NCBI GenBank assembly: GCA_002841865.1
Contig: PHBD01000007.1
Span: 18,726 to 82,725 of the forward strand
Direction: 5' to 3'
Length of the DNA: 64,000 bases
Origin: Deltaproteobacteria bacterium HGW-Deltaproteobacteria-19
GTDB lineage: Bacteria; Desulfobacterota; Syntrophia; Syntrophales; PHBD01
Shown: positions 1-47,874 of the stretch, one piece after another
Layout: each line of letters opens with the position of its first letter
How positions within the stretch are numbered: the first letter of the stretch is position 1
The notes under the pieces: model-generated
Seen by the model: the letters and a program-made list of their open reading frames with translations, nothing else
Told to the model about the DNA's origin: nothing
Databases searched by the model: none
Translations under genes and position numbers: made by a program

Positions 1-1
1 T

Positions 2-79
2 ACAAATCATGAAGAATTTGTGAATGAATTGAAAAATGTAAAAGACAATATAAATAAGTATTTACCCCCAAATACATGA
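2..79 (+). CDS. 3' end of an unidentified ORF entering from the left window edge (partial)
   Basis: Frame 2 is open from the edge and reads TNHEEFVNELKNVKDNINKYLPPNT, then TGA at 77-79. It is AT-rich like its neighbours and too short to identify. Confidence 0.2.
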   Translation, partial: TNHEEFVNELKNVKDNINKYLPPNT

Positions 80-331
80 ATTAAGGGATGTGTCCCCATT
101 CTGTCCCCACTTTATTTTCTATCCGTAATTAACACGTAATATTAATAGGTTAAAAATCGCCTTATGCTTTCAATTCCCATGCACTTCCGCCATTTTATTC
201 ACAATATCCGCGAATTCGCGAAGGTTCAACTTTAACCGGTCTTTAACCTGATCTCTTTCCCACGATTGACGGTTTTCGTGCCCCATACCGGATTTGAATC
301 CCGGGTTTTGAAGAGGCGAGACACACATGCT

Positions 332-1093
332 TCAGAATTTGCCTTTGAATAACATGAACAATATCCAGATAATCAGGAGAGCACCAAGGCCCCAAATGAA
401 AAATCCTATTCCCCCCATCGGGTGTAAAATCATCGCTCGATAGTAATGTTTCTTGCACCAAGCACCCGTGAAGGGAACAGCCCCGGGAAAATGCAGTAAA
501 TGGCCGGGTTCTCCGCAAACATCGCATAAACCGCAGAATCCCCGCGGCACGCCTTGCTTTTCGAGAGTTACCGGACTTTTGTTCCACAGGTCACAATAGC
601 AGGGACCGTAAGGCCAGCCTTTCGCTTTGTACCGCACAATCAAGACTTGTCCATTAAAGAGATTTCGTCCGCACTCTTCCTCGATGATTCTCTGAACGTC
701 CTCTTCCGATCCCCCACCAGTGCCAGCACCAATCAGTGGCATTGCCAGAGATTGGAAGCCATGCTTCGTTGCCGCATCAAGGGCTGACGCGATAGACTTT
801 CGCACGGATGTTTCTGAGGAACACCAGCGGTGGTTAATTCCTGCAACGTGAATAATGGCCTTGTATGGAAGTTTGCCGGCAGAAGTAACCGCCGCTCCTC
901 CCAGAGGCAACACACCATAGCGGCGAAGCTCTCGAAAGGGTGCCAATCCGGCTTTACGCTTGATGGCTCCGGAAACGCCTTGTGGGAGAAGGAGCCACCA
1001 GGGGATGAGATTCCGGTTCCACGGATTGACGATGGCATCAACCTTCTGATCGAGTAAATCACCGTCAACGACCATTAGATTATCTTTATTCAT
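332..1093 (-). CDS. Macro-domain (ADP-ribose binding/hydrolase-like) protein fused to a Cys-rich segment and a C-terminal transmembrane helix
   Basis: 253-aa ORF. Macro motifs are AIVNPWNRNL...GVSGAIKRKAG and MPLIGAGTGGGS. The C-terminal part has CYC...CGLCDVC...WC cysteines followed by the hydrophobic GGIGFFIWGLGALLIIWILFMLF. The gene is AT-rich. Confidence 0.75.
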   Translation of the reverse strand: MNKDNLMVVDGDLLDQKVDAIVNPWNRNLIPWWLLLPQGVSGAIKRKAGLAPFRELRRYGVLPLGGAAVTSAGKLPYKAIIHVAGINHRWCSSETSVRKSIASALDAATKHGFQSLAMPLIGAGTGGGSEEDVQRIIEEECGRNLFNGQVLIVRYKAKGWPYGPCYCDLWNKSPVTLEKQGVPRGFCGLCDVCGEPGHLLHFPGAVPFTGAWCKKHYYRAMILHPMGGIGFFIWGLGALLIIWILFMLFKGKF

Positions 1094-1469
1094 AAGTGAT
1101 AACCTACCGTTAGCCTGACATGCTTCCTGGAAACAATTCAGTCTGGTGAGGGGAGGAAAAGTCGCTGATAAGACAAATAAATCCGGCAGATATTATGGGA
1201 AACCCTTCTATTGTCAATAGAAATACCCGGTTCGTCCTGGCGCAGTTGCCAAAGTGGTTTGAGGATTACGACGAGTGTCATCCCCACAAGGGCCCGGAGA
1301 TAACGTCTCCCGTGAATATCGGTGCCTTGCGGCTGAGTTGGGGGCATGTCCTGTAAATCAGGGGCAAATCCAGACATTGGCCGCGTTGACTTCAATAAAA
1401 CTGCCACAACCGAGAAAGACACATTGGAGGCAGATGTATTCGTGGCTGCAATTCTTCGATGTCACATCT

Positions 1470-1886
1470 CTATTTTTTTGGTTCTTTAACGATCATATTC
1501 AACAGTTTACAGGAGTCGAACACGAGTTCTCCAGCGGGCGCCAGTTGCAGGCGACCAATCTGCATTGCTTCTTGCTCTTGCCCCGCTTTGTAAGCAGCCA
1601 GACCGGATGCATGATCTTTAAAGTAAATTTTAATTGGATACTTTGCTTCCTTACTTTTAAACTCAAGAACTTTGTTTTTCTCGTCGTAATTATAGGTAAA
1701 TTTTTTCTTCTCAAGCGCTTTCATAACTTTATTCAAGGTAAGCCCTGTATCGTTGTATTGCTTGGAGTCCGGATCTCCAGAGCAGTACAATTTCGGTGAA
1801 GAATCAAAACAGCCCGTCAGCACGGCCAGAAAAAAAACAACACCTATTGTTGCCCAAACAAATCCTGATTTTCTACTCATTATCAT
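1470..1886 (-). CDS. Hypothetical lipoprotein
   Basis: The ORF-track ORF is 1470..1919. The start at 1886 (MIMSRKSG...) is preferred because GGAGGAA lies about 6 nt upstream. Signal peptide with lipobox AVLTGC. No recognisable family. Confidence 0.6.
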   Translation of the reverse strand: MIMSRKSGFVWATIGVVFFLAVLTGCFDSSPKLYCSGDPDSKQYNDTGLTLNKVMKALEKKKFTYNYDEKNKVLEFKSKEAKYPIKIYFKDHASGLAAYKAGQEQEAMQIGRLQLAPAGELVFDSCKLLNMIVKEPKK

Positions 1887-2144
1887 AAAAATTCCTCCAT
1901 TATGTTGACGATAAGGCATTACTTTTTAGAATTGGAAGTATATTAAGAAGGATTTTTTGTGTCAATTAAATTTCGGTCAAAATATTGGTTGCGATAGAAT
2001 AAAGGTGATCTTTACGAATTGAATTCTTGAAGATTTAGAGAAAGTCCGGCTTGTTTCTTTCAGGGAGAAGCTTTTTCTTTGACACGATCTATTACGTAAA
2101 GTGCCGTCTTGGGCAGAGGGTAAATACTCGACGGTAGTCAGGCG

Positions 2145-2603
2145 TTATTGCCAGCCGCCCTCGCAACTGCCGCACATCCTATCACAGATAGACTTCTTAT
2201 CCTGAAATGCGCTGTCCGGCACGATGATATTATTTCCGCAGCGCCAGTTATATCCCTTCACACCCGTCCAAGTGTACCCCGGAAGTGGCGAATATATGAT
2301 ATCGCAAGTGATTTCGAAGGGGGGAGTACCTCCCGCGGGACGGCATGAGATCGTACTCGGACCATCACTCGTGGAGTTATAGTCTACGGTGCAATCGGCT
2401 GTTTGATTGGGTATTGCTTCACATCGGTACGTTTCCGCATGAGAAAACAGCCATGATCCTGCGATGAAGCCGGTGATGAGAATTGAAATGAAGAGTTTCC
2501 GTGGCATCCCTAAGAGAGCCGGCAACTCGGCTTTGTCACTCTCTTTAACCGTTCCGCTCTGCTTCAGCCTCTCTTCAATCTTGTCAAGATGAGCTTGAAT
2601 CAT
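2145..2603 (-). CDS. Hypothetical membrane-anchored/exported cysteine-rich protein
   Basis: 152-aa ORF with AAGGTGGA upstream of the ATG at 2603. A hydrophobic stretch LFISILITGFIAGSWLF is followed by a ~95-aa region with about 10 Cys (CEA..DC..SC..TC..RC..IC..MCGSC). No family recognised. Confidence 0.55.
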   Translation of the reverse strand: MIQAHLDKIEERLKQSGTVKESDKAELPALLGMPRKLFISILITGFIAGSWLFSHAETYRCEAIPNQTADCTVDYNSTSDGPSTISCRPAGGTPPFEITCDIIYSPLPGYTWTGVKGYNWRCGNNIIVPDSAFQDKKSICDRMCGSCEGGWQ

Positions 2604-2956
2604 TTCTTTCCACCTTTATTCGCCTTCACTCCAAGTGTGCCCCGAAGCCCTCCGCCTCGGAGGTTCAAACATACGATGGGCATCCTTGTGTGTCAATGAG
2701 AAATCATTTATAAGTATATATCATTATAGGAGTTTGGGAACTTCGGTCTAACAAGGATAATCCTCTCCTCCTTCGCCGACCTACTGACCGGTTTGGGGGC
2801 AGATTTAAATCTTCCCCTTCTTATTTCGGGCGGTTTTAAACAGCCGGCCTTATTGATGTTTTGAGCATATCGCTGAAACAGCAATTGACAGGCGTTCATT
2901 TGTTTTACACAGTAAACTTGTAATGAAAGGCAAATCCACATGAGGGAGGGATAAAA

Positions 2957-3688
2957 ATGAAAAAGATCCTATGTGTTTTGGTCCTTTTCGGGGCAATAGG
3001 CTTTGCCTCCCCGGCCGAGGCCGGTATCCTTGACGATATCCTGAACAGGCTTCCCGAGGGGAAAAGCGGTGTATCTCAGACCGGTCCGGATCAGAAGACC
3101 ACCGTTTCCGGCTTGAAGGAGGCCCTTGCCATCGGCACGGAGAAGGCCGTGAAAGCCTTGTCCAAAAAGGACGGCTATTTCGGCGACGAAATGGTGAAGA
3201 TTCTTCTTCCCGAAAAGATCCGGAAGGCTGCCGATATGGTTGCCAAGCTCGGCTTTCAGAAACAGGTGGACCGTTTTACCCTCAGCATGAACCGTGCAGC
3301 CGAGGCGGCGGCGCCCAAGGCCACCGATCTTTTTGTGGACGCCATCAAGGCCATGTCGTTCGACGATGCCCGGAAGATTCTCCAGGGAGGCGACACGGCG
3401 GCAACGGACTTTTTCAAGGCCAAGACGTCGGACAAGCTCTACGGCGAGTTCAGGCCGGTGGTGGCCGCCAACATGAACAAAGTCGGAGTGACAAAGGCCT
3501 ACAAAGACATGATGGCTCCCTATGAAGCCCTCCCGCTTGTACCCAGGGAGTCGATCGATCTGGATCACTATGTGACCAACAAAGCCCTGGACGGCCTTTT
3601 TCTCATGATCGCGGGGGAAGAGAAGAAGATCCGGAACGATCCAGCCGCCCGGGTGACGGACATCCTGAAGACCGTCTTCGGGAAATAG
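2957..3688 (+). CDS. DUF4197-family exported protein
   Basis: GGGAGGG RBS and a signal peptide ending ASPAEA. Family-typical strings are [50 protein letters not shown] and [19 protein letters not shown]. Confidence 0.75.
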
Positions 3689-18252: not shown

Positions 18253-18977
18253 GACTGAAATTCGCCGTCGTGATCCTTCTGCAGATCCTGCTCCTGATCG
18301 GAATCATCGGCTACCGGGCATACTGGGTTGCGACCGGGGAGCATATCCTCCTGCAGTCGGCCCCCGTCGACCCGCGGGACCTTTTCCGCGGCGACTATGT
18401 GACGCTCGCCTATGACCTGTCGACCATCGACCTCGACCGGGCGGGGATCCGCGGGGACATCCGGCGCAATGACCGGATTTACACCGTTCTGCAAAAGGCG
18501 GGGGATGGAACGTACCGCATGGCGTCTGTCGGCAATACCGTCCCGGTGGGCGGGAAGTTCCTCCAGGGGCGCGTGACCCGCGTGAACGAAAGAGCCACCC
18601 GTTTTGAAGTCACGATCCGGGAGGACGGGGCCGGTGACCGCACCTTCGAGCCGCGCTGGTTTTCGTTCCATGAAGGGGAGCGTGTGATTCTGTGCCTGGA
18701 CCGCGGCGGCCGGGTGCAGGCGTCCCTCCGCGAAAAGGAGGACGCCCGGTGCCGCTCGGGGGAAGCCGTGGCCGGGACGGTGACGGCTGTGAAGAAAATC
18801 TCCTTCCGCCAGGCCGCCGTCGAATACGGCATCGAGCACTTCTTCCTGGAGGAGGGCAAGGGAAAGGCCATGGAAAGGGCCCGCAACGCCCGGGATCTTC
18901 GGGTGGAGGTGGCCCTCCGGGAAGACGGACGGGGACTGATCACGGGCCTGTTCCTCGACGGCCGGCGGATTCCCTAA
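18249..18977 (+). CDS. GDYXXLXY domain protein
   Basis: The GTG at 18249 overlaps the upstream stop (GTGA). An N-terminal TM helix is followed by the literal RGDYVTLAY motif. A second conserved part reads EYGIEHFFLEEGKG. Confidence 0.7.
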   Translation: MRLKFAVVILLQILLLIGIIGYRAYWVATGEHILLQSAPVDPRDLFRGDYVTLAYDLSTIDLDRAGIRGDIRRNDRIYTVLQKAGDGTYRMASVGNTVPVGGKFLQGRVTRVNERATRFEVTIREDGAGDRTFEPRWFSFHEGERVILCLDRGGRVQASLREKEDARCRSGEAVAGTVTAVKKISFRQAAVEYGIEHFFLEEGKGKAMERARNARDLRVEVALREDGRGLITGLFLDGRRIP

Positions 18978-36989: not shown

Positions 36990-37811
36990 TTGGATCCCCA
37001 GGCCCTGAAAGAGATCATCGTCCGGTTTGTCCGGGAGGCCGGTGCCGACATGGTCGGAATCGCCCCGGCGGAACGCTGGGATGAAGACGGGCGCGTCCCG
37101 CCGGACTTCCGCCCGGCCGCCCTTTGGGCGCCCGCCCGGAGCGTCATCGTTCTGGGCCTCGGGATGCCCCTCCCCATGGTGGAGACGACGCCCTCCATCG
37201 TCCACATGGAACTGTACCGCACGGTCAACCGGAAGCTGGACCTCCTGGCCTACGATCTCACCATGCTGCTGAACCGCCGGGGGGCGGCCTCCTTCTTCTT
37301 CCCCCGGGACGGATTCAGCAGCCTGAAGCCGTTCCATGAGCGGCCCGTGGCGGCCTTCAGCCACGTCATGGCCGCGTACTACGCCGGGCTGGGAACCATC
37401 GGGGCAAGCCATTGCCTCCTGACCCCGGCCTTCGGTCCCCGGGTCCGTTTCGTCTCGATCTTCACAGCGGCCGACCTGCCCGCTGACACCCCCCTGGAAA
37501 AGGATCTATGCATCCGCTGCGGCGCCTGCGCCGACTGCTGCCCCAAGAAGGCCATAACCCTCCGGAAGGACCGGGTCGTCGGCGACTACGACATGCCGGC
37601 CTGCCTGGAAATGGCCGAGGAACTGACCCGACGACGCTGCTACCCCTGCGGGATCTGCACGAAGGTGTGCCCCATCGGGGAAGACCGCAGACTCTACCGG
37701 GAGAAAGGGATCCTGAAAAAATACCGGAAGGAGGCCGAGGCGCTGGCGGCAGATCCGAACGATCCGCAATACCGCTCCTGGACCCACCTCCGCCGGTACG
37801 GGACCCCGTGA
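36990..37811 (+). CDS. 4Fe-4S dicluster protein (epoxyqueuosine-reductase/reductive-dehalogenase-related fold)
   Basis: TTG start. CIRCGACADCCP and CYPCGICTKVCP ferredoxin motifs follow a ~170-aa N-terminal domain. Confidence 0.6.
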   Translation: MDPQALKEIIVRFVREAGADMVGIAPAERWDEDGRVPPDFRPAALWAPARSVIVLGLGMPLPMVETTPSIVHMELYRTVNRKLDLLAYDLTMLLNRRGAASFFFPRDGFSSLKPFHERPVAAFSHVMAAYYAGLGTIGASHCLLTPAFGPRVRFVSIFTAADLPADTPLEKDLCIRCGACADCCPKKAITLRKDRVVGDYDMPACLEMAEELTRRRCYPCGICTKVCPIGEDRRLYREKGILKKYRKEAEALAADPNDPQYRSWTHLRRYGTP

Positions 37812-37893
37812 GGAGAAGCGCCGGGACCGGACGGCCCGGCCCGCCCCGGTGCGGACCGCCGGGAACCCGACAACGACAGAGGTTTCGCCGATC

Positions 37894-38655
37894 ATGAATC
37901 TGACCGAGTTCAACTCCCTCTTTCACAGCCTCCTGGAGGCGGAGCACGACACACCAACGATTCTTCGCGAAGGGAGACTGCTGCTGACGGAACTCCTGGG
38001 ACGCCGGGAATGGTTCGCCGAGCACATCAACAGGCTCCTGACGGACCGGGCGCTTCTCGCCGAGCAGAAGCCCTCCCTCTGGCCCAACGAAATCACCCTC
38101 CACCGCCATCCCGACGGCTCGTTCCAGATGCTGGCCTACATCTGGGAACCCGGGTCCATGGACACGATCCACGACCACGGCGCCTGGGGAATCATCGGGG
38201 CCTACCTCAACAAGATCCGGGAGCGGAAATACCGCCGCCTCGACGACGGGACCGTCGAGGGATACGCCGAGCTGGAGGAGTCGGCGGACCGCATTCTGAT
38301 GCCCCGGGAGATCAGCGTGGTGCGCCCCCTGGACGACGGCATCCATCAGATGGAAAACATCACCGACACCGTGGCCGTCACCATCAACGTCTACGGGAGA
38401 ACCGTCCGCAAGGGGTACAGCCAGTATTTCTACCCGGAGAAGAAGGCCGTGCAGCGGGTCTATCCCCCGCGGACCTACAAGGAAGTCCTCCTGCTCCGCT
38501 CCCTCGGGACGATCCGGGAGCCCTGGGCGGAGGAGATCCTGGCCAACGCCTCCCGGAACTCCATGCCGGACTACATCCGCCGGGAATGCGATCTCGCCCT
38601 GTCCGCCGTGAACAACGGCCGGGAAGCTCCGATCCGGCAGGAACCGCCTCTCTGA
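37894..38655 (+). CDS. Cupin, cysteine-dioxygenase type I-like protein
   Basis: Internal ATG at 37894. Metal-site-like strings MDTIHDHGAWG and IHQMEN. 253 aa. Confidence 0.55.
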   Translation: MNLTEFNSLFHSLLEAEHDTPTILREGRLLLTELLGRREWFAEHINRLLTDRALLAEQKPSLWPNEITLHRHPDGSFQMLAYIWEPGSMDTIHDHGAWGIIGAYLNKIRERKYRRLDDGTVEGYAELEESADRILMPREISVVRPLDDGIHQMENITDTVAVTINVYGRTVRKGYSQYFYPEKKAVQRVYPPRTYKEVLLLRSLGTIREPWAEEILANASRNSMPDYIRRECDLALSAVNNGREAPIRQEPPL

Positions 38656-38659
38656 CCGT

Positions 38660-39586
38660 GTGCGGATGAGACGGAAAGCGACCTCCCCGCAACACCGCGT
38701 GTTCGGCCTCGGGCAGTGCTCCCTGGATGCCTTGGGGACGATCGCAGCCTACCCGCCGCCGGATGTGAAATGCGAATTCACCGGGCTGACCGTCCAGGGG
38801 GGCGGACCCGTCGCCACGGCCCTGGCAGCCCTGTCCCGCTGGGGAATCGCCTGCGCCTTCGCGGGGGTTGTCGGCGACGACCCAGCCGGCGACGCCATCC
38901 GCGCGTCCCTCCTTGCCGAGGGCATCGACACGGCCGGCCTCGTCATGCGCCCGGGCGCCCTCTCCCAGCAGGCCTTCATCTTCGCCGAACCGGCCCGGAA
39001 AGGACGCCGCACCATCTTCTGGCAGCGGCCCACCGGCGATCCCCTCCTCCCCGGCGAGGTGGATCTGGAGAAGCTCCGCCGGGCCCACGCCTTCCACACC
39101 GACGGCCTGTTCATCGAGGCCGCCCTTTTCGCCGCTGACGAGGCCCGGAAGGCAGGCATCCCTGTCGTGGTCGACGCGGGAACCCTCCGGGATGGAATGC
39201 TGGACCTGGCGAGACGGAGCGACTGCTTCATCGCTTCGGAGACCTTCGGCCGCGCCCTGGCGGGGGACGACTTCCCCGGGGAGGCCCTGAAGCGGATGGC
39301 GGCCCTGGGGCCGGGTCTCGTCGCTGTCACCCTGGGCGCAGAGGGATACGCCGCCCTCCTCGACGGCCGGATCGTCCGGAAACCCGCCTGGCCGGCCAGG
39401 GCGGTGGACACCACGGGCTGCGGCGACGTCTTCCACGCCGGATTCGTCTACGGTCTATTGAACGGCTGGGAGCACGGACGTTCGCTCGATTTCGGCGCCT
39501 GGGCCGCCGCCCGGGTGAGCCGCCGTCTCGGCGGCCGGGCGGGAATCCCTACGCTCCGGCAGGTCCGGGCGGCGGGATACCGGTGA
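38660..39586 (+). CDS. PfkB-family carbohydrate/nucleoside kinase
   Basis: GGGPVATALAAL, a di-Gly region and a C-terminal DTTGCGDVFHAGFVYG (PfkB signature 2). The start is GTG 38660 or ATG 38666. Confidence 0.85.
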   Translation: MRMRRKATSPQHRVFGLGQCSLDALGTIAAYPPPDVKCEFTGLTVQGGGPVATALAALSRWGIACAFAGVVGDDPAGDAIRASLLAEGIDTAGLVMRPGALSQQAFIFAEPARKGRRTIFWQRPTGDPLLPGEVDLEKLRRAHAFHTDGLFIEAALFAADEARKAGIPVVVDAGTLRDGMLDLARRSDCFIASETFGRALAGDDFPGEALKRMAALGPGLVAVTLGAEGYAALLDGRIVRKPAWPARAVDTTGCGDVFHAGFVYGLLNGWEHGRSLDFGAWAAARVSRRLGGRAGIPTLRQVRAAGYR

Positions 39587-39731
39587 CGCTGCAGCCGATT
39601 GAACCGGACCGCGTGGTGAAAACCAACTAGGGGAAAACCCATATTTAGTCCGAGAAAATACCTGTCAATTAAGCGGCCAATGGCTTCTCCACAACAATAA
39701 ATGGAGATCTTCCCTTGATTGGAGCAATAAA

Positions 39732-42700
39732 ATGAGATTCGTGTCTGATGGACCATCAATCCCCGACGATCTTCTTGTTGCACGAGATGAAGGTCAAGTT
39801 GTCTTTATTTGTGGGGCCGGAGTATCTCAAGCACGCGCCAATCTACCCAATTTTTCTCAATTGACGCGGCATGTTATTGAAAGACTTGGAGCTACGTCTG
39901 AAGATCCGGCACGAAGACTTCTTGAAGAAGCAGAGAGACTGGATAAGATCGCGGGAGTCACTGGCGTTATTCCATACGACAGAATATTTGGACTTCTGGA
40001 AAGAGACTTTTCCATACAAGAGATTGAACAAGAAGCTGCTAAGGCTCTTAAGCCAGCTGAGAATCCCGATCTTTCCGCCCACCGGATCATACTGGATTTG
40101 GCAAAGATGCCAGATGGACGAGTCAGAATTGTTACGACAAACTTTGATCTTCTTTTCGAAGCCTGTGATTCTACATTACCGTGTTGCCGTCCCCCTCGCT
40201 TACCGGACCCCATGCGTGATGATGAATTTGAAGGAATCATTCATCTGCATGGCCGTGTAGACAGTAAATATCAAAATGCTGATGGTGACGGTTTTGTTCT
40301 CTCCAGTGCAGGTTTTGGACGTGCTTATCTCGCTGAAGGATGGGCAACTTCTTTTATCCGACCTATCATAGATCAATATATTGTCGTCTTTGTAGGATAC
40401 GCGGCGGATGATCCTCCTGTTTATTACCTACTGGAGGCACTGAACAGCTATAAAAAATCTTTGGCAGGTGTATATGCCTTTCAGGCCGGCAATGCGGGAG
40501 ATGCAGAAGCCAAGTGGAGGCATAAAGGTGTATGTCCCATCGCATATGATGAAGCGGACAACCATAAGGCCCTTTGGGATACGTTCGCAGGATGGGCAGA
40601 AAGGGCAAAAGACCCGAATGCCTGGCTCGAGAAAATCATTACCCTGTCGCAGGAAGGTCCTGAAGCACTGACACCGCATGAAAGAGGTCAGGTCGCGCAT
40701 ATTGTTTCCACACATGAAGGTGCCAGAAGGTTCGCCAACGCAGATGTTCCCCCTCCTGCCGAATGGCTATGCGTTTTTGATCCGGTCATCCGTTATATGA
40801 CTCCAGTCAATATCAATATTTATTCCGAGGATAAGCATCCATTTGATCCATTTTATGATGCATATGGGTTGGACAACGATACACCGCCACCGAGAGTTGA
40901 TCCGAGGGACTACTTTGCCAAAAGGGACTTACCCTTCGGTGAATGGGATGCCTTTTCACTCAACAAGTCAGATATCAAGAACCTTCAGGATGATCGCTAT
41001 GCAGCACTGCGGGGACACTGGGCAATCAATGTACCCCGATTATCATCGCGTTTGGAGCATTTGTGTGTATGGATCAGTAAAGTATGTCATCAACCGGCTG
41101 CCGCATGGTGGGCTGCCGGGCAAAAGGGCGTACATCATTCTCTTAAACATCTAATCCATTCTCAACTAGTGGACTCAAATGTAAACTCGTTCCCTTCAGA
41201 GGTTTATAAAGCCTGGAGGTTGATCCTTGAGGTATGGAGGAATCGAGAAAGGGATGCCGATTTGGATTGGCATGATTTGAAAAAGTCTATCAATCGTGAT
41301 GGCTGGAAAAATGAAACGATCAAAGAGTTTGCTTCTATCAGGAGGCCTTATCTCTCATTTGGTAACATGCCTCGGAAGAGCGGAAGCAAACCACCCTCAA
41401 TGAGAGAGGAGATTCAGTATAGAGAGTTGGTCAGTGTGGAAGTAAAATATCCTACGCCTTATCGTGATGCAGATATTCCTGATGACTTTCTCTTGTCCGT
41501 TGTCCAAGAGTTCCGAAAAAATTTAGAGCACGCAATCTATCTTGAACAGGACAGAGGTGGATATGGGTTACATCACCTTTCACCGATTGAACCGGATAAA
41601 AGTGTCAATGGCGATTCATATGAAAGAACACACGGTATATCAAGCATTCTGCTCTATTACGTCAAACTTTTCAAAAGACTCGTTGAAAGTGACCCACAAG
41701 TTGCCAAACAGGAATGTTTGGCATGGCGGCAGGATGAAGAAACGGTTTTTGATCTTTTGAGGATCTGGATCGCCGGTGACCCGCGTATATTCAGCGGAAA
41801 GGATGCGGGCGAATTGCTCATGCGGCTGAGTATGCAGTCGTTTTGGGAGCGCCGTCATCAGCGGGATTTGCTACTCGTGTTGGAAAAACGATGGAACGAT
41901 TTTCCAAAGGCAACGAGAATGCGCCTCGAACGTCGGATTTTGCAGGGGCCACCACCTTGTGAATTGGAAGAAAGGAAACGGTATGTCGATAGACGGGCAT
42001 GGACAATATTAAATCTGATTCATTGGTTGGCAGAACATGGATTACAATTCAGTTTTGATCTACGAAAGAAAAGCGAAAAACTGCGCAAGCAAGCACCCGA
42101 GTGGCAGCCTGAATATGCTGCAAAGGCAGCCAACTCCCTGGAAGGACGAGGCGGATTTATTAAGAGGAAAACAGAACATTCTTCACTTCTTGCCGAGCCT
42201 CCGGAATTGATTCTTCAAAAGGCGAAAGAACTCAGTGGCAGTGATTACGAAAGATTAACGGAGAATGATCCCTTCGCGGGTCTGTCGGCCGAAAGGGCGG
42301 ACCTCGCCCTTGCCGCGCTTGCTAGTAACGCGGATCGCAATGATTATCCGGAATGGGCATGGCGAACGTTCCTTTACGCAGATGCACGCAAGAATGATTC
42401 TGCAGATTTTTCGGCGCAGATAGGAAACCATATATTAGAAATGTCGGATGATGTCGTTTGTGGCATCATTTCACCTGTTTCTGATTGGTTTTTAAATGCC
42501 AGCAAGGGTCTTTTAGCTGCGCTGCAGGAGCGATTCTGGCAGATATGGGAACGGTTAATTGCAATCTTGAAATCTAAACCACAAAGTGCACCCTCAAACA
42601 TCTTAAGGCAGAAAGATGAACCTGATTTTGCCATGGAGGGTCTGAATGCGCCTGTTGGTAAGCTTGCACAAGCCTTGATGAATGATCCGGCAATAGCTAA

Positions 42701-43553
42701 TTTTGGTAAGAAGAGATGCCTGCCTTTGTTTTGGAGGAAACGCGTTGAAGAATTGCTCCATTTGGAAGGGAACCTGCGCCAACATGCTCTAGTAATGTTT
42801 ACTTACCATCTTGAATGGTTCTATGTAAGGGATTCTCGCTGGACACTAGAAAATTTGATTCCCTTACTAGATGCCGATGACGATGATCAAAAGGCCTTCT
42901 GGTCCGGTTTCTTCTGGAATCCACAATTGCATACTAAACTATTTGAAGTTCTGAAACCTTATTTGGTTCGTCTTGTCTACGACAAAACGGTTGAGAAACA
43001 GGGCCACCTAAACACCCTGTCGGCTATTCTCCTAGCCTATTGGTGGAATGTACTTCCCAAAACAGGTGAGCGACTTGTCAGTAGTACAGAGATGAGAGAG
43101 ATTCTTCTCCGGGCTGACGAAAATTTTCGGGTTAATACTCTATGGGAAGCTAAAAGCTTTCTTACAAGGAAGAAAGCGGACAGAAGAAGCTTATCAACAT
43201 TCATGACAGATGTATGGCCGAAGCATAAAAAGGCAAAAAGTCCTAGAATATCCGCTGCCCTTTGTGAATTGGTATTTACGGATGCCGAAGCTTTCGGAAG
43301 CCTTATCGATCTCATTCTGCCTCTGGTATCTAAATGTGATAAGCATGGATTATTTATCTACAAGCTAGATGATTCCAAAATTATTGATTTATTCCCTGAA
43401 AAAGTACTTGCGCTGGTGTATGTAGTTCTGCCTGATAACGCGTCTGAATGGCCTTATGGGATAGGGAATGTTCTTAAACGAATTGGTGAAGTAAAGCCGA
43501 CTCTTCTGAAAGATAAAAAGTTGCTTGAATTAAAGAAACGATTGGGTGGCTGA
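39732..43553 (+). CDS. SIR2-like (SIR2_2-type) domain protein with ~1000-aa unassigned helical C-terminal region; candidate defence-associated sirtuin (DSR-like NADase)
   Basis: 1273-aa ORF with GGAG 8 nt upstream. SIR2_2 motifs: VVFICGAGVS (aa 23-32), RIVTTNFDLLFE (N137), IIHLHGR (H171/H173) and VVFVGYAADDPPV. The gene is markedly AT-richer than both flanks. Confidence 0.8.
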   Translation: MRFVSDGPSIPDDLLVARDEGQVVFICGAGVSQARANLPNFSQLTRHVIERLGATSEDPARRLLEEAERLDKIAGVTGVIPYDRIFGLLERDFSIQEIEQEAAKALKPAENPDLSAHRIILDLAKMPDGRVRIVTTNFDLLFEACDSTLPCCRPPRLPDPMRDDEFEGIIHLHGRVDSKYQNADGDGFVLSSAGFGRAYLAEGWATSFIRPIIDQYIVVFVGYAADDPPVYYLLEALNSYKKSLAGVYAFQAGNAGDAEAKWRHKGVCPIAYDEADNHKALWDTFAGWAERAKDPNAWLEKIITLSQEGPEALTPHERGQVAHIVSTHEGARRFANADVPPPAEWLCVFDPVIRYMTPVNINIYSEDKHPFDPFYDAYGLDNDTPPPRVDPRDYFAKRDLPFGEWDAFSLNKSDIKNLQDDRYAALRGHWAINVPRLSSRLEHLCVWISKVCHQPAAAWWAAGQKGVHHSLKHLIHSQLVDSNVNSFPSEVYKAWRLILEVWRNRERDADLDWHDLKKSINRDGWKNETIKEFASIRRPYLSFGNMPRKSGSKPPSMREEIQYRELVSVEVKYPTPYRDADIPDDFLLSVVQEFRKNLEHAIYLEQDRGGYGLHHLSPIEPDKSVNGDSYERTHGISSILLYYVKLFKRLVESDPQVAKQECLAWRQDEETVFDLLRIWIAGDPRIFSGKDAGELLMRLSMQSFWERRHQRDLLLVLEKRWNDFPKATRMRLERRILQGPPPCELEERKRYVDRRAWTILNLIHWLAEHGLQFSFDLRKKSEKLRKQAPEWQPEYAAKAANSLEGRGGFIKRKTEHSSLLAEPPELILQKAKELSGSDYERLTENDPFAGLSAERADLALAALASNADRNDYPEWAWRTFLYADARKNDSADFSAQIGNHILEMSDDVVCGIISPVSDWFLNASKGLLAALQERFWQIWERLIAILKSKPQSAPSNILRQKDEPDFAMEGLNAPVGKLAQALMNDPAIANFGKKRCLPLFWRKRVEELLHLEGNLRQHALVMFTYHLEWFYVRDSRWTLENLIPLLDADDDDQKAFWSGFFWNPQLHTKLFEVLKPYLVRLVYDKTVEKQGHLNTLSAILLAYWWNVLPKTGERLVSSTEMREILLRADENFRVNTLWEAKSFLTRKKADRRSLSTFMTDVWPKHKKAKSPRISAALCELVFTDAEAFGSLIDLILPLVSKCDKHGLFIYKLDDSKIIDLFPEKVLALVYVVLPDNASEWPYGIGNVLKRIGEVKPTLLKDKKLLELKKRLGG

Positions 43554-43704
43554 CGCTTTCAGGAAGGAGTCTTGAGGGCCTGTTCAATGTCCCCGCCTGC
43601 AACTTCAAGTACCAGTCTTCAAAGATCTGTTCCAATTTTCTGAGGGCCGTTCCTGTCTACGGGATGGCGCAATACGGAATCGACGTGACCGGCAAACACC
43701 TCCA

Positions 43705-44589
43705 TCAGGGATCATCGCCCGCTGTTCCATCAAAACGAAACTCCTCGAAACGGCCGTTCTCCAGGTCGATGTGCGCCATGACATGCCGGAATATCCTCCC
43801 GCGGCGCAGGAGGATTTTGAGCACCTCCATGGCCTGGAGGGTGCCGACGGCGGCGGCGGTCACCGCCGGAACGCCCAGAAGGTCCTCCGGCCGCTCCGCG
43901 TCGGCTTCCGTCGCCGTCGGTGAATCATAAAGCCGCTCCAGGCCGGGATCTCCCGGATAAACCGTCATGACCCGGCCCTCAAAACCCGCCAGCGCGCCGT
44001 GCACCAGGGGAACCCCCAGCCGTCGGGCCGCCTCCTGCAGAACCAGCCGGTCCGGAGCATTGTCCAGAGCATCAACGATAACATCGGCACCGGCCAGCAG
44101 CGAATCCGCGTTTGAGGCGATGATTCTCGACTGGTGCGGGACGACCCGGACCCCGGGATTGACAGAGGCCACGGTCTCCGCGGCGGCCACCGCCTTCGAT
44201 TTCTGCAGTGTCTCCCGGCTGCACAGGGCCTGACGGTTCAGGTTCGTCTCGTCGAACCGGTCGCAATCGACGACCACCAGCCGGCCGACGCCGATCCGCG
44301 CCAGGAGCAGGATCACCTGCCCGCCCAGCCCGCCCGCTCCGGCGACGGCAACCTGCGACTCGGCAATCTTCAATTGCTCCGCCGGAGTGATGATGTCCAG
44401 GTTGCGGATATAGCGGTTGGGATAAACGCCGATCCCCAGCGCCTCCCTGTATATCTCGTGCAGGTCCGTGCCGCACAGGCCGGCGATCTCCAGGGCGGCC
44501 CTGTCTTCCAGGATGGAAATTTCTCGCCCCGCCGGGTCGGTGATTCGTGCAGCCTTTTCCCGTAGCTGCCGATGGATGTCCGACGTCAT
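43705..44589 (-). CDS. HesA/MoeB/ThiF-family E1-like adenylyltransferase with ~90-aa N-terminal extension
   Basis: ATG 44589 lies 8 nt after AGGAG. VAVAGAGGLGGQV and DCDRFDETNLNRQ are present. There are no CxxC zinc pairs. Confidence 0.8.
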   Translation of the reverse strand: MTSDIHRQLREKAARITDPAGREISILEDRAALEIAGLCGTDLHEIYREALGIGVYPNRYIRNLDIITPAEQLKIAESQVAVAGAGGLGGQVILLLARIGVGRLVVVDCDRFDETNLNRQALCSRETLQKSKAVAAAETVASVNPGVRVVPHQSRIIASNADSLLAGADVIVDALDNAPDRLVLQEAARRLGVPLVHGALAGFEGRVMTVYPGDPGLERLYDSPTATEADAERPEDLLGVPAVTAAAVGTLQAMEVLKILLRRGRIFRHVMAHIDLENGRFEEFRFDGTAGDDP

Positions 44590-44721
44590 CGGAAGCACTC
44601 CTGTTCCATTTCACAGTCCCTCGTCACCCGCCACCCCGGGGGGAAAACCTGCTGGGAGAAAAACGACAAAAGGGTGTATAAAACAAGGGTGGATTTCGCA
44701 GGGAGGGAGGGATATCCGGAC

Positions 44722-44964
44722 ATGAAAATCGAGCTGAACCTGTACGCATCCCTGGCCCGCTACCTCCCCCGGGATGCAGGAGCGCCCGGCAACAGAATCC
44801 GGGAGGTGAGTGAGGGAACCACCATCCTCGAACTCCTCCATGATCTCCAGGTCCCCATGGACAAAGTCAAGCTCATCTTTGTGAACGGGCTTCACGCCCG
44901 CAGCGATGAAATCCTGCGTGAGGGCGACAGGGTGGGCGTTTTCCCGCCGGTGGCGGGAGGGTGA
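44722..44964 (+). CDS. MoaD/ThiS-family ubiquitin-like (beta-grasp) sulfur-carrier protein
   Basis: 80 aa with GGGAGGGAGGG upstream. It ends ...LREGDRVGVFPPVAGG, a C-terminal Gly-Gly. Confidence 0.8.
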   Translation: MKIELNLYASLARYLPRDAGAPGNRIREVSEGTTILELLHDLQVPMDKVKLIFVNGLHARSDEILREGDRVGVFPPVAGG

Positions 44965-44965
44965 T

Positions 44966-45592
44966 TCAAACCGTCCGGATCTCGAGATAAACCTGCAGGG
45001 CTGTAAAATCCCAGGACGGGAGCATCGCCGGATCGACCTGTCTGCCGTCCACCGCGGCTTCCACGCACCCCTCCTCCAGATCATGCGGACGGCTCCTGAA
45101 GAGATCTCGCAAATCCTCCGCGTCGACCCGGATTCCCCGTTCGAGAAACAGGGGCCCCAGCTCCGGGCTGGTCAGGTTGAAGAGCTTCACGACGACCTGT
45201 CCGTCCGTCTGCCGCGGCGCATCCCCATTTTCCAGATGGCTGACGGGACTGCGCAACCGGGAATAGTACCCCCCTTTTCTCATGATCGCACCCAGCAGGC
45301 CGGGCATGGCGGAAGAGAGCGCAAGGACCGCCCCGTCCCGGACCGCGGCGGCGTCCATGTCGTCCACGGGTTTGCCGTCCAGAAAGACCGTCTGGATCCT
45401 GTTTTCGATGTATTCCATGGAGATGCCGAACCGTTCGGCCAGGAGCTCCCGGAGGCTGCAGCCGACCTCCGTCTTCAACACGAAGCCCTTCTGCAGAAGC
45501 GGAAAGAAGAACGGAACGAACCCCGGCTTCACGGTCATGTGGAGGCGGTTCGATCCGTTCGCAGGGATTTGACGCGACGACTCATGGCTCAT
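44966..45592 (-). CDS. Hypothetical protein co-oriented downstream of AOR
   Basis: 208-aa ORF with protein-like composition and no motif recognised. The start is uncertain (45592 or 45538). Confidence 0.5.
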   Translation of the reverse strand: MSHESSRQIPANGSNRLHMTVKPGFVPFFFPLLQKGFVLKTEVGCSLRELLAERFGISMEYIENRIQTVFLDGKPVDDMDAAAVRDGAVLALSSAMPGLLGAIMRKGGYYSRLRSPVSHLENGDAPRQTDGQVVVKLFNLTSPELGPLFLERGIRVDAEDLRDLFRSRPHDLEEGCVEAAVDGRQVDPAMLPSWDFTALQVYLEIRTV

Positions 45593-45667
45593 GCCGGCAC
45601 CCGAAACGGAACATGAGAACGGGGAGACTACACACGGCCCTCCCCGTTCCCGGAAGAAAGATGTTCG

Positions 45668-47404
45668 CTACCAGTTAAAAACCCTGTCCAGATCTTCATC
45701 GGAGACCTGAAAAACCGAATTGTGAGGCGGGAGAAGCTCTTTCCTGAAGAATTCAGGCAAACGGTCCTGCTGTCTGGTAAATCCGGCCCGTTTGTTGAAG
45801 TCCCGCTCCATGGTCAGAATCTTCTTTCCCAGCGCGGTCACGTCGTCGCCGGTCAGCTCCAGCCCGTAAAACGAATTGAGCAGATCCAGCAGGGCCTGGA
45901 AGGTCTGCGGCTGATCCAGGACCGCAAAGGCGATGAAGAGGCACATCCCCGTCGCGTCGATGGCTGCCGTTGCAATCTGGAGGTTTCGTGACAGCTCGAT
46001 CTGTCCTTCCGCCTTCAGGGGATCGACATATCCCCCCACCTTGAGGACGTTTGCGGTGACCGCATAACCCGCCGTGTGGTCGGCCCCCATGGTCGATGTG
46101 GCGTAGGTGACTCCCATGCCCTGGATGGCCCGGGGATCGTAGGCCGGCAGGGCCTGGCCCTTGACGACGGGAACCCTCTCCACGCCGAACACTTTGCCCG
46201 TCACGGCGGCCCCGTTCCCCAGGATGCGCCCCAGGGGGGTCCCTTTGCCGACTTCCCGGATGAGGCGAATGGCCGCCTCCGCGTCGCCGAACCTTGCCAG
46301 GCCCGCCTCCATGGCCACCCCGATGGTCGCGCCCATCTCGATCGTATCCAGGCCGAAATCGTCATCCAGGCGGTCCAGCATGGCAATCGCATCCAGGTCA
46401 TCGATCCCGCAGTTCGCCCCGTGAGCCCAGACCGTCTCATATTCCGGCTGCTTCGACAAGTAGTGGCCGTCCTTGTCCATGTAAATACCCGAGCACTGGA
46501 TCGTGCAGCCCCGATGGCAGCCATGGGTTGCAACACCGCCGCGGGCAACCTCTGTCTCGGCTTCCGTTTCCCCGCTTATTTTTGACACCCCCAAAAATCG
46601 GCCCCACATGAAATTGTGGGTGGGATATCCGCCCGCCTCGTTGATGACATTCGCGAGCACATTGGTCCCGAAAGCGGGAAGGCCTTCACCGGTGACCGGG
46701 TGTCTTCTGAGACCCTCGACAAAGGCCCTGTTGGCGGCTTTGAACTTTTCGGGATCTTTCGGGGCACGGGCCGTCATCCCGGTATCGTCGAGGACGATGA
46801 CCTTCACCCCCTTAGCGCCCATGACCGCACCGACCCCTCCGCGCCCAGCATGACGGGTGGGCCGCAATTCCATGTCCGTAAAGGCCACGGACGCGGCGGA
46901 CATTTTCATCTCTCCTGCCTGGCCGATGGAAATGCAGGCGATTTTGTCCCCGTATTCCCTTTTCATCTTTTCGACCAGGTCATAGTTGCCGAGCCCTTTC
47001 AGGCTGTTGTCCGGGATGATGTTCACACCGTCCTTGTTGATGAATATCCTGTAGAGATCGCTGTCCCGGGGCTTTCCCTCCAGGATGATCGCGGCATAGC
47101 CGAGCCGGGCCAGGACCTGGGAGGCCTGGCCGCCCGAGTTGGCCTCCTTGATCCCCCCGGTGAGAGGGCTCTTGCAGCCCACGGACATGCGCCCGGACAT
47201 GGCCGCAAGGGAACCGCTCAACATCCCCGGGGCGATGACCAGTTTGTTGTCCTCACTCAAGGGGTGGGCCAGGGGTGGCACTTCCCTGGCAACGACGGCG
47301 GACGTCAACGCCCTGCCCGCGAGCCCCGCGTATTCCCCCATCTGATCCACGCTTGCGTTGGGACCTCCTTCGACACTCATATTGATCCGGAGCAGTTTAT
47401 CCAT
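45668..47404 (-). CDS. aor: Aldehyde:ferredoxin oxidoreductase (tungsten/molybdopterin AOR family)
   Basis: ATG 47404 follows AAAGGGGGG. LRINMS...G, CKSPLTGG, ATHGCHRGCTIQC (Fe-S Cys cluster) and GADHTAGY match the AOR N- and C-terminal domains. Confidence 0.9.
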   Translation of the reverse strand: MDKLLRINMSVEGGPNASVDQMGEYAGLAGRALTSAVVAREVPPLAHPLSEDNKLVIAPGMLSGSLAAMSGRMSVGCKSPLTGGIKEANSGGQASQVLARLGYAAIILEGKPRDSDLYRIFINKDGVNIIPDNSLKGLGNYDLVEKMKREYGDKIACISIGQAGEMKMSAASVAFTDMELRPTRHAGRGGVGAVMGAKGVKVIVLDDTGMTARAPKDPEKFKAANRAFVEGLRRHPVTGEGLPAFGTNVLANVINEAGGYPTHNFMWGRFLGVSKISGETEAETEVARGGVATHGCHRGCTIQCSGIYMDKDGHYLSKQPEYETVWAHGANCGIDDLDAIAMLDRLDDDFGLDTIEMGATIGVAMEAGLARFGDAEAAIRLIREVGKGTPLGRILGNGAAVTGKVFGVERVPVVKGQALPAYDPRAIQGMGVTYATSTMGADHTAGYAVTANVLKVGGYVDPLKAEGQIELSRNLQIATAAIDATGMCLFIAFAVLDQPQTFQALLDLLNSFYGLELTGDDVTALGKKILTMERDFNKRAGFTRQQDRLPEFFRKELLPPHNSVFQVSDEDLDRVFNW

Positions 47405-47874
47405 ATACAGCCCCCCTTTCTGAATGGGTTTTGCTCCTGAAAACATGGGTTGCCGACGTTCCGGTTATCTGGACGGCTCTTACAACGAACTCAGACTGCG
47501 AGCAGGTCAACGGCGATTTTCATCTATTTCGCCAACCGGGAGATAACCCCTCTTTCTCCGGACGGAATGAATCCTATCCTGTTTCAACATCCGTCCACTT
47601 TTGAATATCCAGCCTCCTTTCTTATGACTTGCCGCGGGGTCTGTCTGACCGGCCCTTCCCATCCGAACGGCGGAAGCACGCCCTCACATCGCCGGGTTTC
47701 ATGGGCCCTCAGGCGGAAACAGGAGTTTCCCCACAAGAAATCAGGTTGACGAATCCTTTGCTTACAGAGGAGAATAGCCGTCGTGTTTCTTTTAACATAC
47801 ACGGATCATTTGAAGTTTCAATGTGTCACTTCTGATACAATGCCTTTGACAACCAATTCGGGAGGAGGTCTGCC

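Follow-up and report, generated by a model that had tools for sequence, protein, structure and literature searches.

What kind of protein is encoded by a low-G+C (guanine plus cytosine) gene that stands alone between two host genes of high G+C content? The gene lies in contig PHBD01000007.1 of Deltaproteobacteria bacterium HGW-Deltaproteobacteria-19 (assembly GCA_002841865.1), within a stretch of 64,000 nucleotides (nt; contig positions 18,726 to 82,725) that we refer to as the window and whose numbering we use throughout. A preliminary description, made from the sequence alone, had read it as a horizontally acquired, stand-alone, DSR-like SIR2 gene with an unassigned and possibly new sensor architecture of ~1000 residues. 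Our analysis indicates that the island probably consists of a single gene for a divergent, stand-alone anti-phage protein of the Dsr1 family, in which a SIR2 NAD+ hydrolase is fused to a solenoid sensor of ~900 residues. Dsr1 is the defense-associated sirtuin 1 (Gao et al. 2020).

Membership in the Dsr1 family

The open reading frame (ORF) starts with ATG and is intact over 1273 codons. It was found as previously described, and so were all four motifs quoted for it: GAGVS (residues 28–32), TTNFD (135–139, containing N137), HLHG (171–174) and VFVGYAADDP (219–228). In a Pfam scan of the 1273-residue protein, residues 132–270 match SIR2_2 significantly (E = 4.3e-11, 43.5 bits with a cut-off of 24.5), as had been anticipated. 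No other Pfam domain was detected at E ≤ 1, including DUF4020 (PF13212), which the preliminary description had named as an associate of SIR2_2.

Homology to Dsr1 extends over the entire protein. Two PADLOC Dsr1 profile hidden Markov models match it at E = 2.9e-99 and 3e-89, with the whole-protein match split into two stretches, the best of which covers residues 1–350. BLASTP against the Dsr1 of Pantoea aligned residues 1–366 at 32% identity (E = 1e-46) and residues 658–1271 with residues 663–1274 at 22% identity (E = 4e-28), the latter match being collinear with the N-terminal one. We then compared an alignment of 28 members of the clade containing the window protein with an alignment of 20 canonical Dsr1 sequences, many of them named Dsr1 by NCBI or UniRef. 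The two profiles were matched by hhalign with a probability of 100% (E = 6.5e-85) across 1186 columns, 12–1284 against 1–1269, and only six insertions or deletions (indels) of 4–32 residues separate the clades. The window protein lacks a 19-residue canonical insertion after residue 482, and its length of 1273 residues compares with 1263–1279 in canonical Dsr1.

The sensor alone (residues 321–1273) also matches both PADLOC models, PDLC02183 at E = 3.2e-36, with sensor residues 168–948 aligned to model positions 481–1267, and PDLC04167 at E = 5e-34. Given the end-to-end hhalign match, the sensor-alone PADLOC matches and the presence of only six small indels, we assign the ~1000-residue C-terminal region as a divergent Dsr1 sensor. 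The earlier view of this region as a new architecture is therefore not upheld, as hhalign, BLASTP and the sensor-alone PADLOC searches all place it in collinear homology with the Dsr1 sensor.

The distance to canonical Dsr1 is nevertheless considerable, with an identity of ~24% for the whole protein and ~20% for the sensor. Scores on both PADLOC models are ~300 bits for the window protein and the proteins related to it, whereas canonical members such as those of Pantoea and of the E. coli plasmid pMTY18781-2 reach 1600–1700 bits on PDLC02183 and ~640 bits on PDLC04167. The sole NCBIfam match is the Dsr1 equivalog NF041818 (E = 3e-120), with a score of 402.9 bits that does not reach the curated cut-off of 1400 bits. 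Because of this score, we place the window protein in a divergent lineage that is sister to canonical Dsr1 and do not class it as an equivalog, while its architecture, full-length homology and stand-alone status place it, as judged from sequence, in the Dsr1 family in the broad sense. The Prokaryotic Genome Annotation Pipeline (PGAP) likewise labels canonical members “dsr1” and window-type members “SIR2 family protein”.

The sister lineage is large. A word-indexed search with the window protein gave more than 2000 matches, the best 120 of which are 918–1289 residues long (all but four 1254–1289) and 45–81% identical to the query. The closest protein in the collection is 81% identical, and the exact window protein is absent from it. 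An exhaustive phmmer search of 1.84 billion representatives with the sensor alone returned 563, 1080 and 1767 clusters (50% identity) at E ≤ 1e-30, 1e-10 and 1e-3, respectively. Among the best 150 sensor matches we found no alternative effector: all are SIR2-plus-sensor proteins or N-terminally truncated gene calls, and the sensor begins near residue 320 unless the call is truncated. Eight short or unusual proteins among these 150 were scanned with Pfam; SIR2_2, whole or as a C-terminal part, is present in six, and the other two have no Pfam match.

Members of the clade include WP_151154524.1 and WP_136525497.1. A tblastn search of plasmids identified 67 records, 28 of them full-length and most annotated “SIR2 family protein”, with one more distant match, from Pantoea sp. 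S18, annotated as Dsr1. Homologues also occur on prophage-like viral contigs, 29 in all. Our searches returned WP_053264524.1 as the plasmid-borne Dsr1 of E. coli, which is not the EcDsr1 of the literature (WP_029488749.1). The sister lineage, which the NCBIfam equivalog and PGAP naming miss, comprises no fewer than 563 clusters (50% identity) and is widespread in anaerobic Thermodesulfobacteriota, on alphaproteobacterial and betaproteobacterial plasmids and on prophage-like contigs.

A separate observation concerns a 606-residue “hypothetical protein” encoded on the Enterobacter hormaechei plasmid NZ_CP056156.1 (locus L077, 4806–6626), whose resemblance to the Dsr1 sensor is confined to the C-terminal half of the latter and which has an IS3 transposase on both sides. 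It appears to be a remnant of a Dsr1/Avs7-type sensor protein truncated by an insertion sequence (IS). We considered it as a possible non-SIR2 carrier of the Dsr1 sensor and rejected it, since an IS-flanked fragment is uninformative in this respect.

The SIR2 domain, the linker and the sensor

The protein was modelled with AlphaFold2 (AF2) as two pieces, residues 1–420 and residues 321–1273. The N-terminal model (predicted local distance difference test score, pLDDT, 86.4; predicted template modelling score, pTM, 0.84) adopts the SIR2 NADase fold. In the PDB, Foldseek matches it best to SIR2 NADase domains, namely those of DSR2, EcThsA, KomC and Avs5 (E ~1e-9, template modelling score, TM, up to 0.72 of target).

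An alignment of 70 sequences from the two clades shows no variation at G28, G30, S32, T136, N137, H173 and G174; the first three belong to the NAD-binding G-x-G-x-S loop, which is GAGVS in the window protein. The catalytic pair proposed in the preliminary description was N137 and H171, of which the first residue stands and the second does not. A profile-to-PDB alignment puts N137 in register with TTN(Y/F)D in KomC and SIR2-HerA. Position 171 (codon 40242–40244), on the other hand, is occupied by tyrosine in canonical Dsr1, where the consensus reads GLVYLHG; its number coincides with that of the catalytic histidine of DSR2 (H171A in PDB entry 8wyb). Since H173, the histidine of the L-H-G motif, is invariant in both clades and aligns with KomC H146, which is mutated in entry 9xvc, the histidine proposed earlier is not the right one. 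The predicted catalytic pair is N137/H173, and mutagenesis should target H173 instead of H171.

The SIR2 domain is followed by a clade-specific linker at residues 350–450. Block identity in this segment is 0.47–0.51 within the window clade versus 0.10–0.11 to canonical Dsr1. AF2 predicts it to be mostly non-helical, with fair confidence (block pLDDT 66–91), and D372, P373, F374, D383, P386, R398, D414, R440 and W447 are invariant within the clade.

The model of residues 321–1273 (pLDDT 87.7) consists almost wholly of helical repeats. A Foldseek search of the PDB with this model returned generic HEAT/ARM solenoids, including condensin CAP-G, importin-beta, CAND1 and PP2A-A, at TM ~0.2; DSR2 is absent from the 50 matches listed. 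Single-sequence and profile searches of the PDB found nothing for the sensor and weak SIR2 matches only.

Acquisition, mobility and genomic setting

The gene is foreign in composition. Its G+C content is 0.455 and its G+C content at third codon positions (GC3) 0.403, while the rest of the window has a G+C content of 0.614. G+C and GC3 are 0.717 and 0.858 for the upstream pfkB gene, 0.608 and 0.764 for a nearby aldehyde:ferredoxin oxidoreductase (AFOR) gene and 0.688 and 0.905 for an NMO gene, and the downstream thiF gene has a G+C content of 0.653 (GC3 in Table 1). GC3 of nearby genes thus spans 0.76–0.90, against 0.40 in the Dsr1-like gene. The low G+C content noted in the preliminary description holds, and its estimate of ~70% or more for the flanks agrees with pfkB and overshoots thiF a little. 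The tract at 39587–39731 has a G+C content of 0.462, and on the right the composition profile climbs to ≥0.6 past ~43600. A GGAG 8–11 nt before the ATG is a putative ribosome-binding site. We found no consensus sigma-70 promoter in the AT-rich leader and no convincing terminator in the spacer downstream of the gene, the promoter/terminator scan being at background level.

Comparison with the closest relatives places the left edge of the foreign DNA immediately downstream of pfkB. The window PfkB is 93% and 92% identical to the PfkB proteins encoded on two contigs, L008 and L009, from metagenome-assembled genomes (MAGs) of Syntrophaceae, which places the host in the Syntrophaceae (Syntrophales). 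In blastn, L008 1–1128 corresponds to window 38486–39613 and L009 1–2653 to window 36995–39612, with 90–92% DNA identity. At 39612/39613, 27 nt past the pfkB stop, all similarity ends, both to the window and between the two contigs: L008 continues into a P-type ATPase gene, and L009 into a gene whose product, by its C-terminal sequence, looks like the catalase-peroxidase KatG. Among 68 pfkB loci, none has a ThiF or SIR2 gene within 9 kb of pfkB and none presents an empty pfkB–thiF junction. The comparison of this junction proposed earlier therefore yielded absence of the gene 3' of pfkB in the closest relatives but no clean empty site, and insertion is supported by this absence together with composition. 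From the coinciding breakpoints of L008 and L009 and the lack of a ThiF or SIR2 gene at the 68 loci, we conclude that rearrangement or insertion recurs at this site. It was at this rearrangement-prone point 3' of pfkB that a Syntrophaceae-like host took up the gene by horizontal transfer.

The closest alleles occupy three unrelated neighbourhoods in other Syntrophaceae MAGs. P0001 (81% amino acid identity to the window protein) adjoins SbcCD, P0002 (80%) an MNT/HEPN pair and P0006 (77%) Fic/HTH genes. No ThiF gene is found beside the homologues in these three neighbourhoods, and in two of the MAGs (the JAHDKI and CAZIQY assemblies) pfkB and the Dsr1-like allele are on different contigs. The G+C content of the three alleles is 46.7–46.8% versus 53–54% in their flanks, and their DNA similarity to the window (79–83%) spans 39728–43547, that is, the ORF alone. 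That the gene is mobile follows from these three unrelated contexts and from the related proteins carried by plasmids and prophage-like contigs; it also stands alone. The preliminary reading of a horizontally acquired, stand-alone DSR-like gene is supported by the PADLOC Dsr1 matches, the GC3 contrast, the absence in relatives and the three contexts.

The gene is under purifying selection: the ratio of nonsynonymous to synonymous divergence (dN/dS) relative to the three alleles is 0.14–0.19 overall and 0.10–0.20 per segment. Two parts of the gene differ in their nearest allele. Codons 1 to ~280 are 87–95% identical at the nucleotide level to the L005 allele (MAG LM1-B42D) and 69–84% to the L002 allele, whereas past codon ~300 identity is 82–88% to L002 versus 72–85% to L005. 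Synonymous divergence (dS) to L005 and L002 is 0.31 and 1.28 in the SIR2 part and 0.75 and 0.50 in the sensor. This reversal of nucleotide identity and dS indicates recombination near the SIR2/sensor junction, at codons 280–300 (~nt 40570–40630), and a gene that is a mosaic of two allelic lineages.

Table 1. Features of the island and its flanks in window coordinates
Feature	Position	Strand	Basis
Host pfkB-family sugar kinase, left flank, native composition	38660..39586	+	Pfam PfkB E=1.2e-33
AT-rich leader, start of foreign DNA	39614..39731	+	Synteny with closest relatives stops at 39612/39613
Dsr1-like gene, SIR2 NADase and alpha-solenoid sensor, predicted single-gene system, 1273 residues	39732..43553	+	ORF and Dsr1 models
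SIR2 (SIR2_2) NADase domain, ~residues 1–300, GAGVS 28–32, TTN (N137), LHG (H173)	codon span 39732..40631	+	Pfam SIR2_2, AF2 model
N137 codon, TTN motif, predicted catalytic Asn	40140..40142	+	Invariant in 70 sequences
H173 codon, LHG motif, predicted catalytic His	40248..40250	+	Invariant in 70 sequences
Clade-specific linker segment, ~residues 350–450, 32-residue insertion at 409–440	40779..41081	+	Block identity, AF2
All-alpha solenoid sensor, ~residues 450–1273, homologous to Dsr1 sensor	41082..43550	+	AF2, PADLOC, BLASTP
Spacer between convergent Dsr1-like gene and thiF, right edge of low-G+C tract	43554..43704	.	G+C 0.53
Host ThiF/E1-like gene, right flank, native composition	43705..44598	-	Pfam ThiF E=1.9e-53, GC3 0.779

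Pfam bears out both flanking genes as named in the preliminary description, PfkB and ThiF. As in that description, which had reported no tRNA, integrase or flanking repeat, no integrase accompanies the gene, no tRNA was found in the entire 64-kb window, and direct or inverted repeats around the island are limited to short matches at chance level. An exact 14-nt direct repeat, CCGATTGAACCGGA, occurs at 39595–39608 and 41583–41596. Its first copy is in the host-conserved 3' flank of pfkB and its second within the gene, where it codes for a conserved PIEPD motif. We considered it as a border repeat of the island and rejected it as probably coincidental, since the second copy codes for this conserved motif and no copy lies at the island boundary.

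The thiF-like gene is ~1 kb from a gene for a tungsten-type AFOR (AFOR_N and AFOR_C, E = 1.6e-81), the two forming the region 43705–47446 on the minus strand. ThiF beside an AFOR gene presumably represents a cofactor module (MoaD/MoeB-type) of that operon and not a defence function. We rejected ThiF as an E1-type partner of the SIR2 gene on the basis of its native composition, its convergent orientation and its absence beside close homologues. A 74-nt stretch of L008 (7085–7158), in an otherwise unrelated context and lacking a ThiF ORF, matches the 3' end of thiF (window 43718–43791) at 78% identity and may be a thiF remnant. At the start of the window, positions 1–3000 form a second low-G+C tract (0.42–0.47) with several small ORFs that give no Pfam match. 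This tract also contains an ORF (332–1093, minus strand) for a 253-residue Macro-domain protein (Pfam Macro E = 4.1e-22, GC3 0.52), and is possibly a further acquisition whose function relates to ADP-ribose.

Proposed mechanism, alternatives and comparison with known systems

In B. subtilis, expression of DSR1 confers protection from phi29; NAD+ is depleted transiently and the culture does not collapse (10.1101/2021.12.14.472415). A January 2026 preprint (PMC12803255) identifies the phage major capsid protein as the trigger of EcDsr1, recognized through a sensor shared with Avs7, and describes the Dsr1 sensor as homologous to the TPR sensor of Avs7. According to the same preprint, the Dsr1/Avs7 superfamily keeps this trigger across very different effectors. 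As the window sensor is homologous to that of Dsr1, it should, by transitivity, belong to the Avs7/Dsr1 sensor superfamily. From the published family members we infer NADase activity, an anti-phage phenotype, the identity of the trigger and the mode of activation for the window protein. In the uninfected cell, the sensor and the linker would hold the SIR2 domain inactive. During infection, the solenoid would bind a phage-made protein, most likely a structural one such as the major capsid protein, by analogy with EcDsr1 and Avs7. Binding would release or assemble the SIR2 domains, which would then cleave NAD+ to ADP-ribose and nicotinamide, and the loss of NAD+ would halt phage replication.

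Several observations weigh against a simple transfer of Dsr1 function to the window protein. The equivalog score of 402.9 bits relative to the 1400-bit cut-off, the ~24% identity and the naming of the relatives by PGAP only as “SIR2 family protein” mean that functional equivalence with Dsr1 is not guaranteed. Residues 350–450, with their 32-residue insertion, are essentially unalignable to canonical Dsr1. With an identity of ~20% in the sensor, the trigger could well be something other than the major capsid protein. The PDB copy used in our structural comparison contained no Dsr1 or Avs7 structure, the searched literature yielded no experimental test of any window-clade member, and the neighbours of the gene are metabolic genes that provide no defence-island support.

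These points bear most directly on the trigger. A protein of the same family and with the same effector might respond to another phage structural or replication protein, or to a host factor perturbed by infection, with residues 350–450 taking part in regulation. We regard this as possible, though unlikely. It would fit the sensor identity of ~10–25% per block to canonical Dsr1, the clade-specific indels and the size and internal diversity of a clade of 563 clusters at E ≤ 1e-30, and the related SIR2 effector DSR2 is reported to use a different trigger, the tail tube protein. The full-length collinear homology with the Dsr1 sensor counts against a different trigger, as does the retention of the capsid trigger across the Avs7/Dsr1 superfamily (PMC12803255). 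Doubtful, and offered tentatively, is the wider proposal of a functionally distinct DSR lineage, in which the sensor would recognize a non-capsid trigger, residues 350–450 would act as an autoinhibitory element and recombination at the junction would create new effector–sensor pairs.

The remaining alternatives depart further from Dsr1. A host sirtuin-like enzyme with a housekeeping or regulatory role, such as a protein deacylase or ADP-ribosyltransferase without a link to phage defence, would suit the metabolic neighbours and the lack of a defence island, but it is very improbable given the foreign composition, the absence of the gene at this locus in the closest relatives, its variable context elsewhere, its carriage on plasmids and prophage-like contigs and a domain structurally closest to defence NADases. 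It is hardly credible that the gene is a decaying or inactive relic of a transfer, although no promoter or terminator consensus is recognizable in its flanks: the 1273 codons are intact, catalytic and structural invariants are kept, and dN/dS remains 0.14–0.19. The original reading of a SIR2 effector on an undescribed sensor, and hence of a new system, drew on the fact that Pfam recognizes only SIR2_2, that the C-terminal region has no PDB sequence match and that Foldseek returns generic solenoids. It is refuted, with a residual probability close to nil, by the end-to-end hhalign match at 100% probability, the sensor-alone PADLOC matches (E ~1e-34 to 1e-36), the matching length and the presence of only six indels.

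We thus favour a divergent Dsr1-family protein. The apparent orphan sensor is reclassified as a Dsr1-type sensor and no new kind of system is revealed, so that the description of this gene as the window's strongest candidate for a poorly described system was overstated for a divergent member of a named family. What remains of interest is the size of the under-annotated clade, its clade-specific segment at residues 350–450 and a possibly different trigger. A divergent clade of the same architecture also offers comparative material for the sensor surfaces that set trigger specificity.

Among known systems, ThsA, SIR2-HerA, KomC and the SIR2 effectors of Avs5 share the SIR2 NADase fold and the catalytic Asn/His with the window protein. 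These systems rely on partners or signals (SLOG/gcADPR, HerA, KomB and STAND, respectively), whereas the window sensor is fused to its effector and has no partner gene. Identity with Thoeris ThsA was rejected, as the protein has no ThsA model match, no SLOG domain and no partner gene. DSR2 of Bacillus subtilis (PDB: 8wy8, 8k98), a ~1000-residue protein whose helical sensor binds a phage structural protein, is likewise a single gene with an N-terminal SIR2 NADase fold and a large helical sensor. Identity with DSR2 was also rejected: the PADLOC Dsr2 model does not match the window protein, DSR2 is missing from the sensor Foldseek list, and the PDB profile match is confined to the first ~30 residues at E ~1, with no sequence similarity beyond the SIR2 domain. 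Avs7 combines a Dsr1-type TPR sensor with a STAND NTPase, while the window protein has no STAND NTPase and carries SIR2 as its effector.

The closest counterpart is Dsr1 itself, which a 2026 paper still terms “poorly characterized” and which, in the case of EcDsr1, is counteracted by the phage NARP3 system, which restores NAD+ (PMC13464706). The window protein differs from Dsr1 in its ~24% identity, in the clade-specific segment at residues 350–450 with the 32-residue insertion and in the missing 19-residue canonical insertion. It shares with Dsr1 the single-gene organization, the same length, the order of SIR2_2 followed by a long alpha-solenoid, collinear end-to-end homology, the G-A-G-x-S, TTN and LHG motifs, and carriage on plasmids and prophages.

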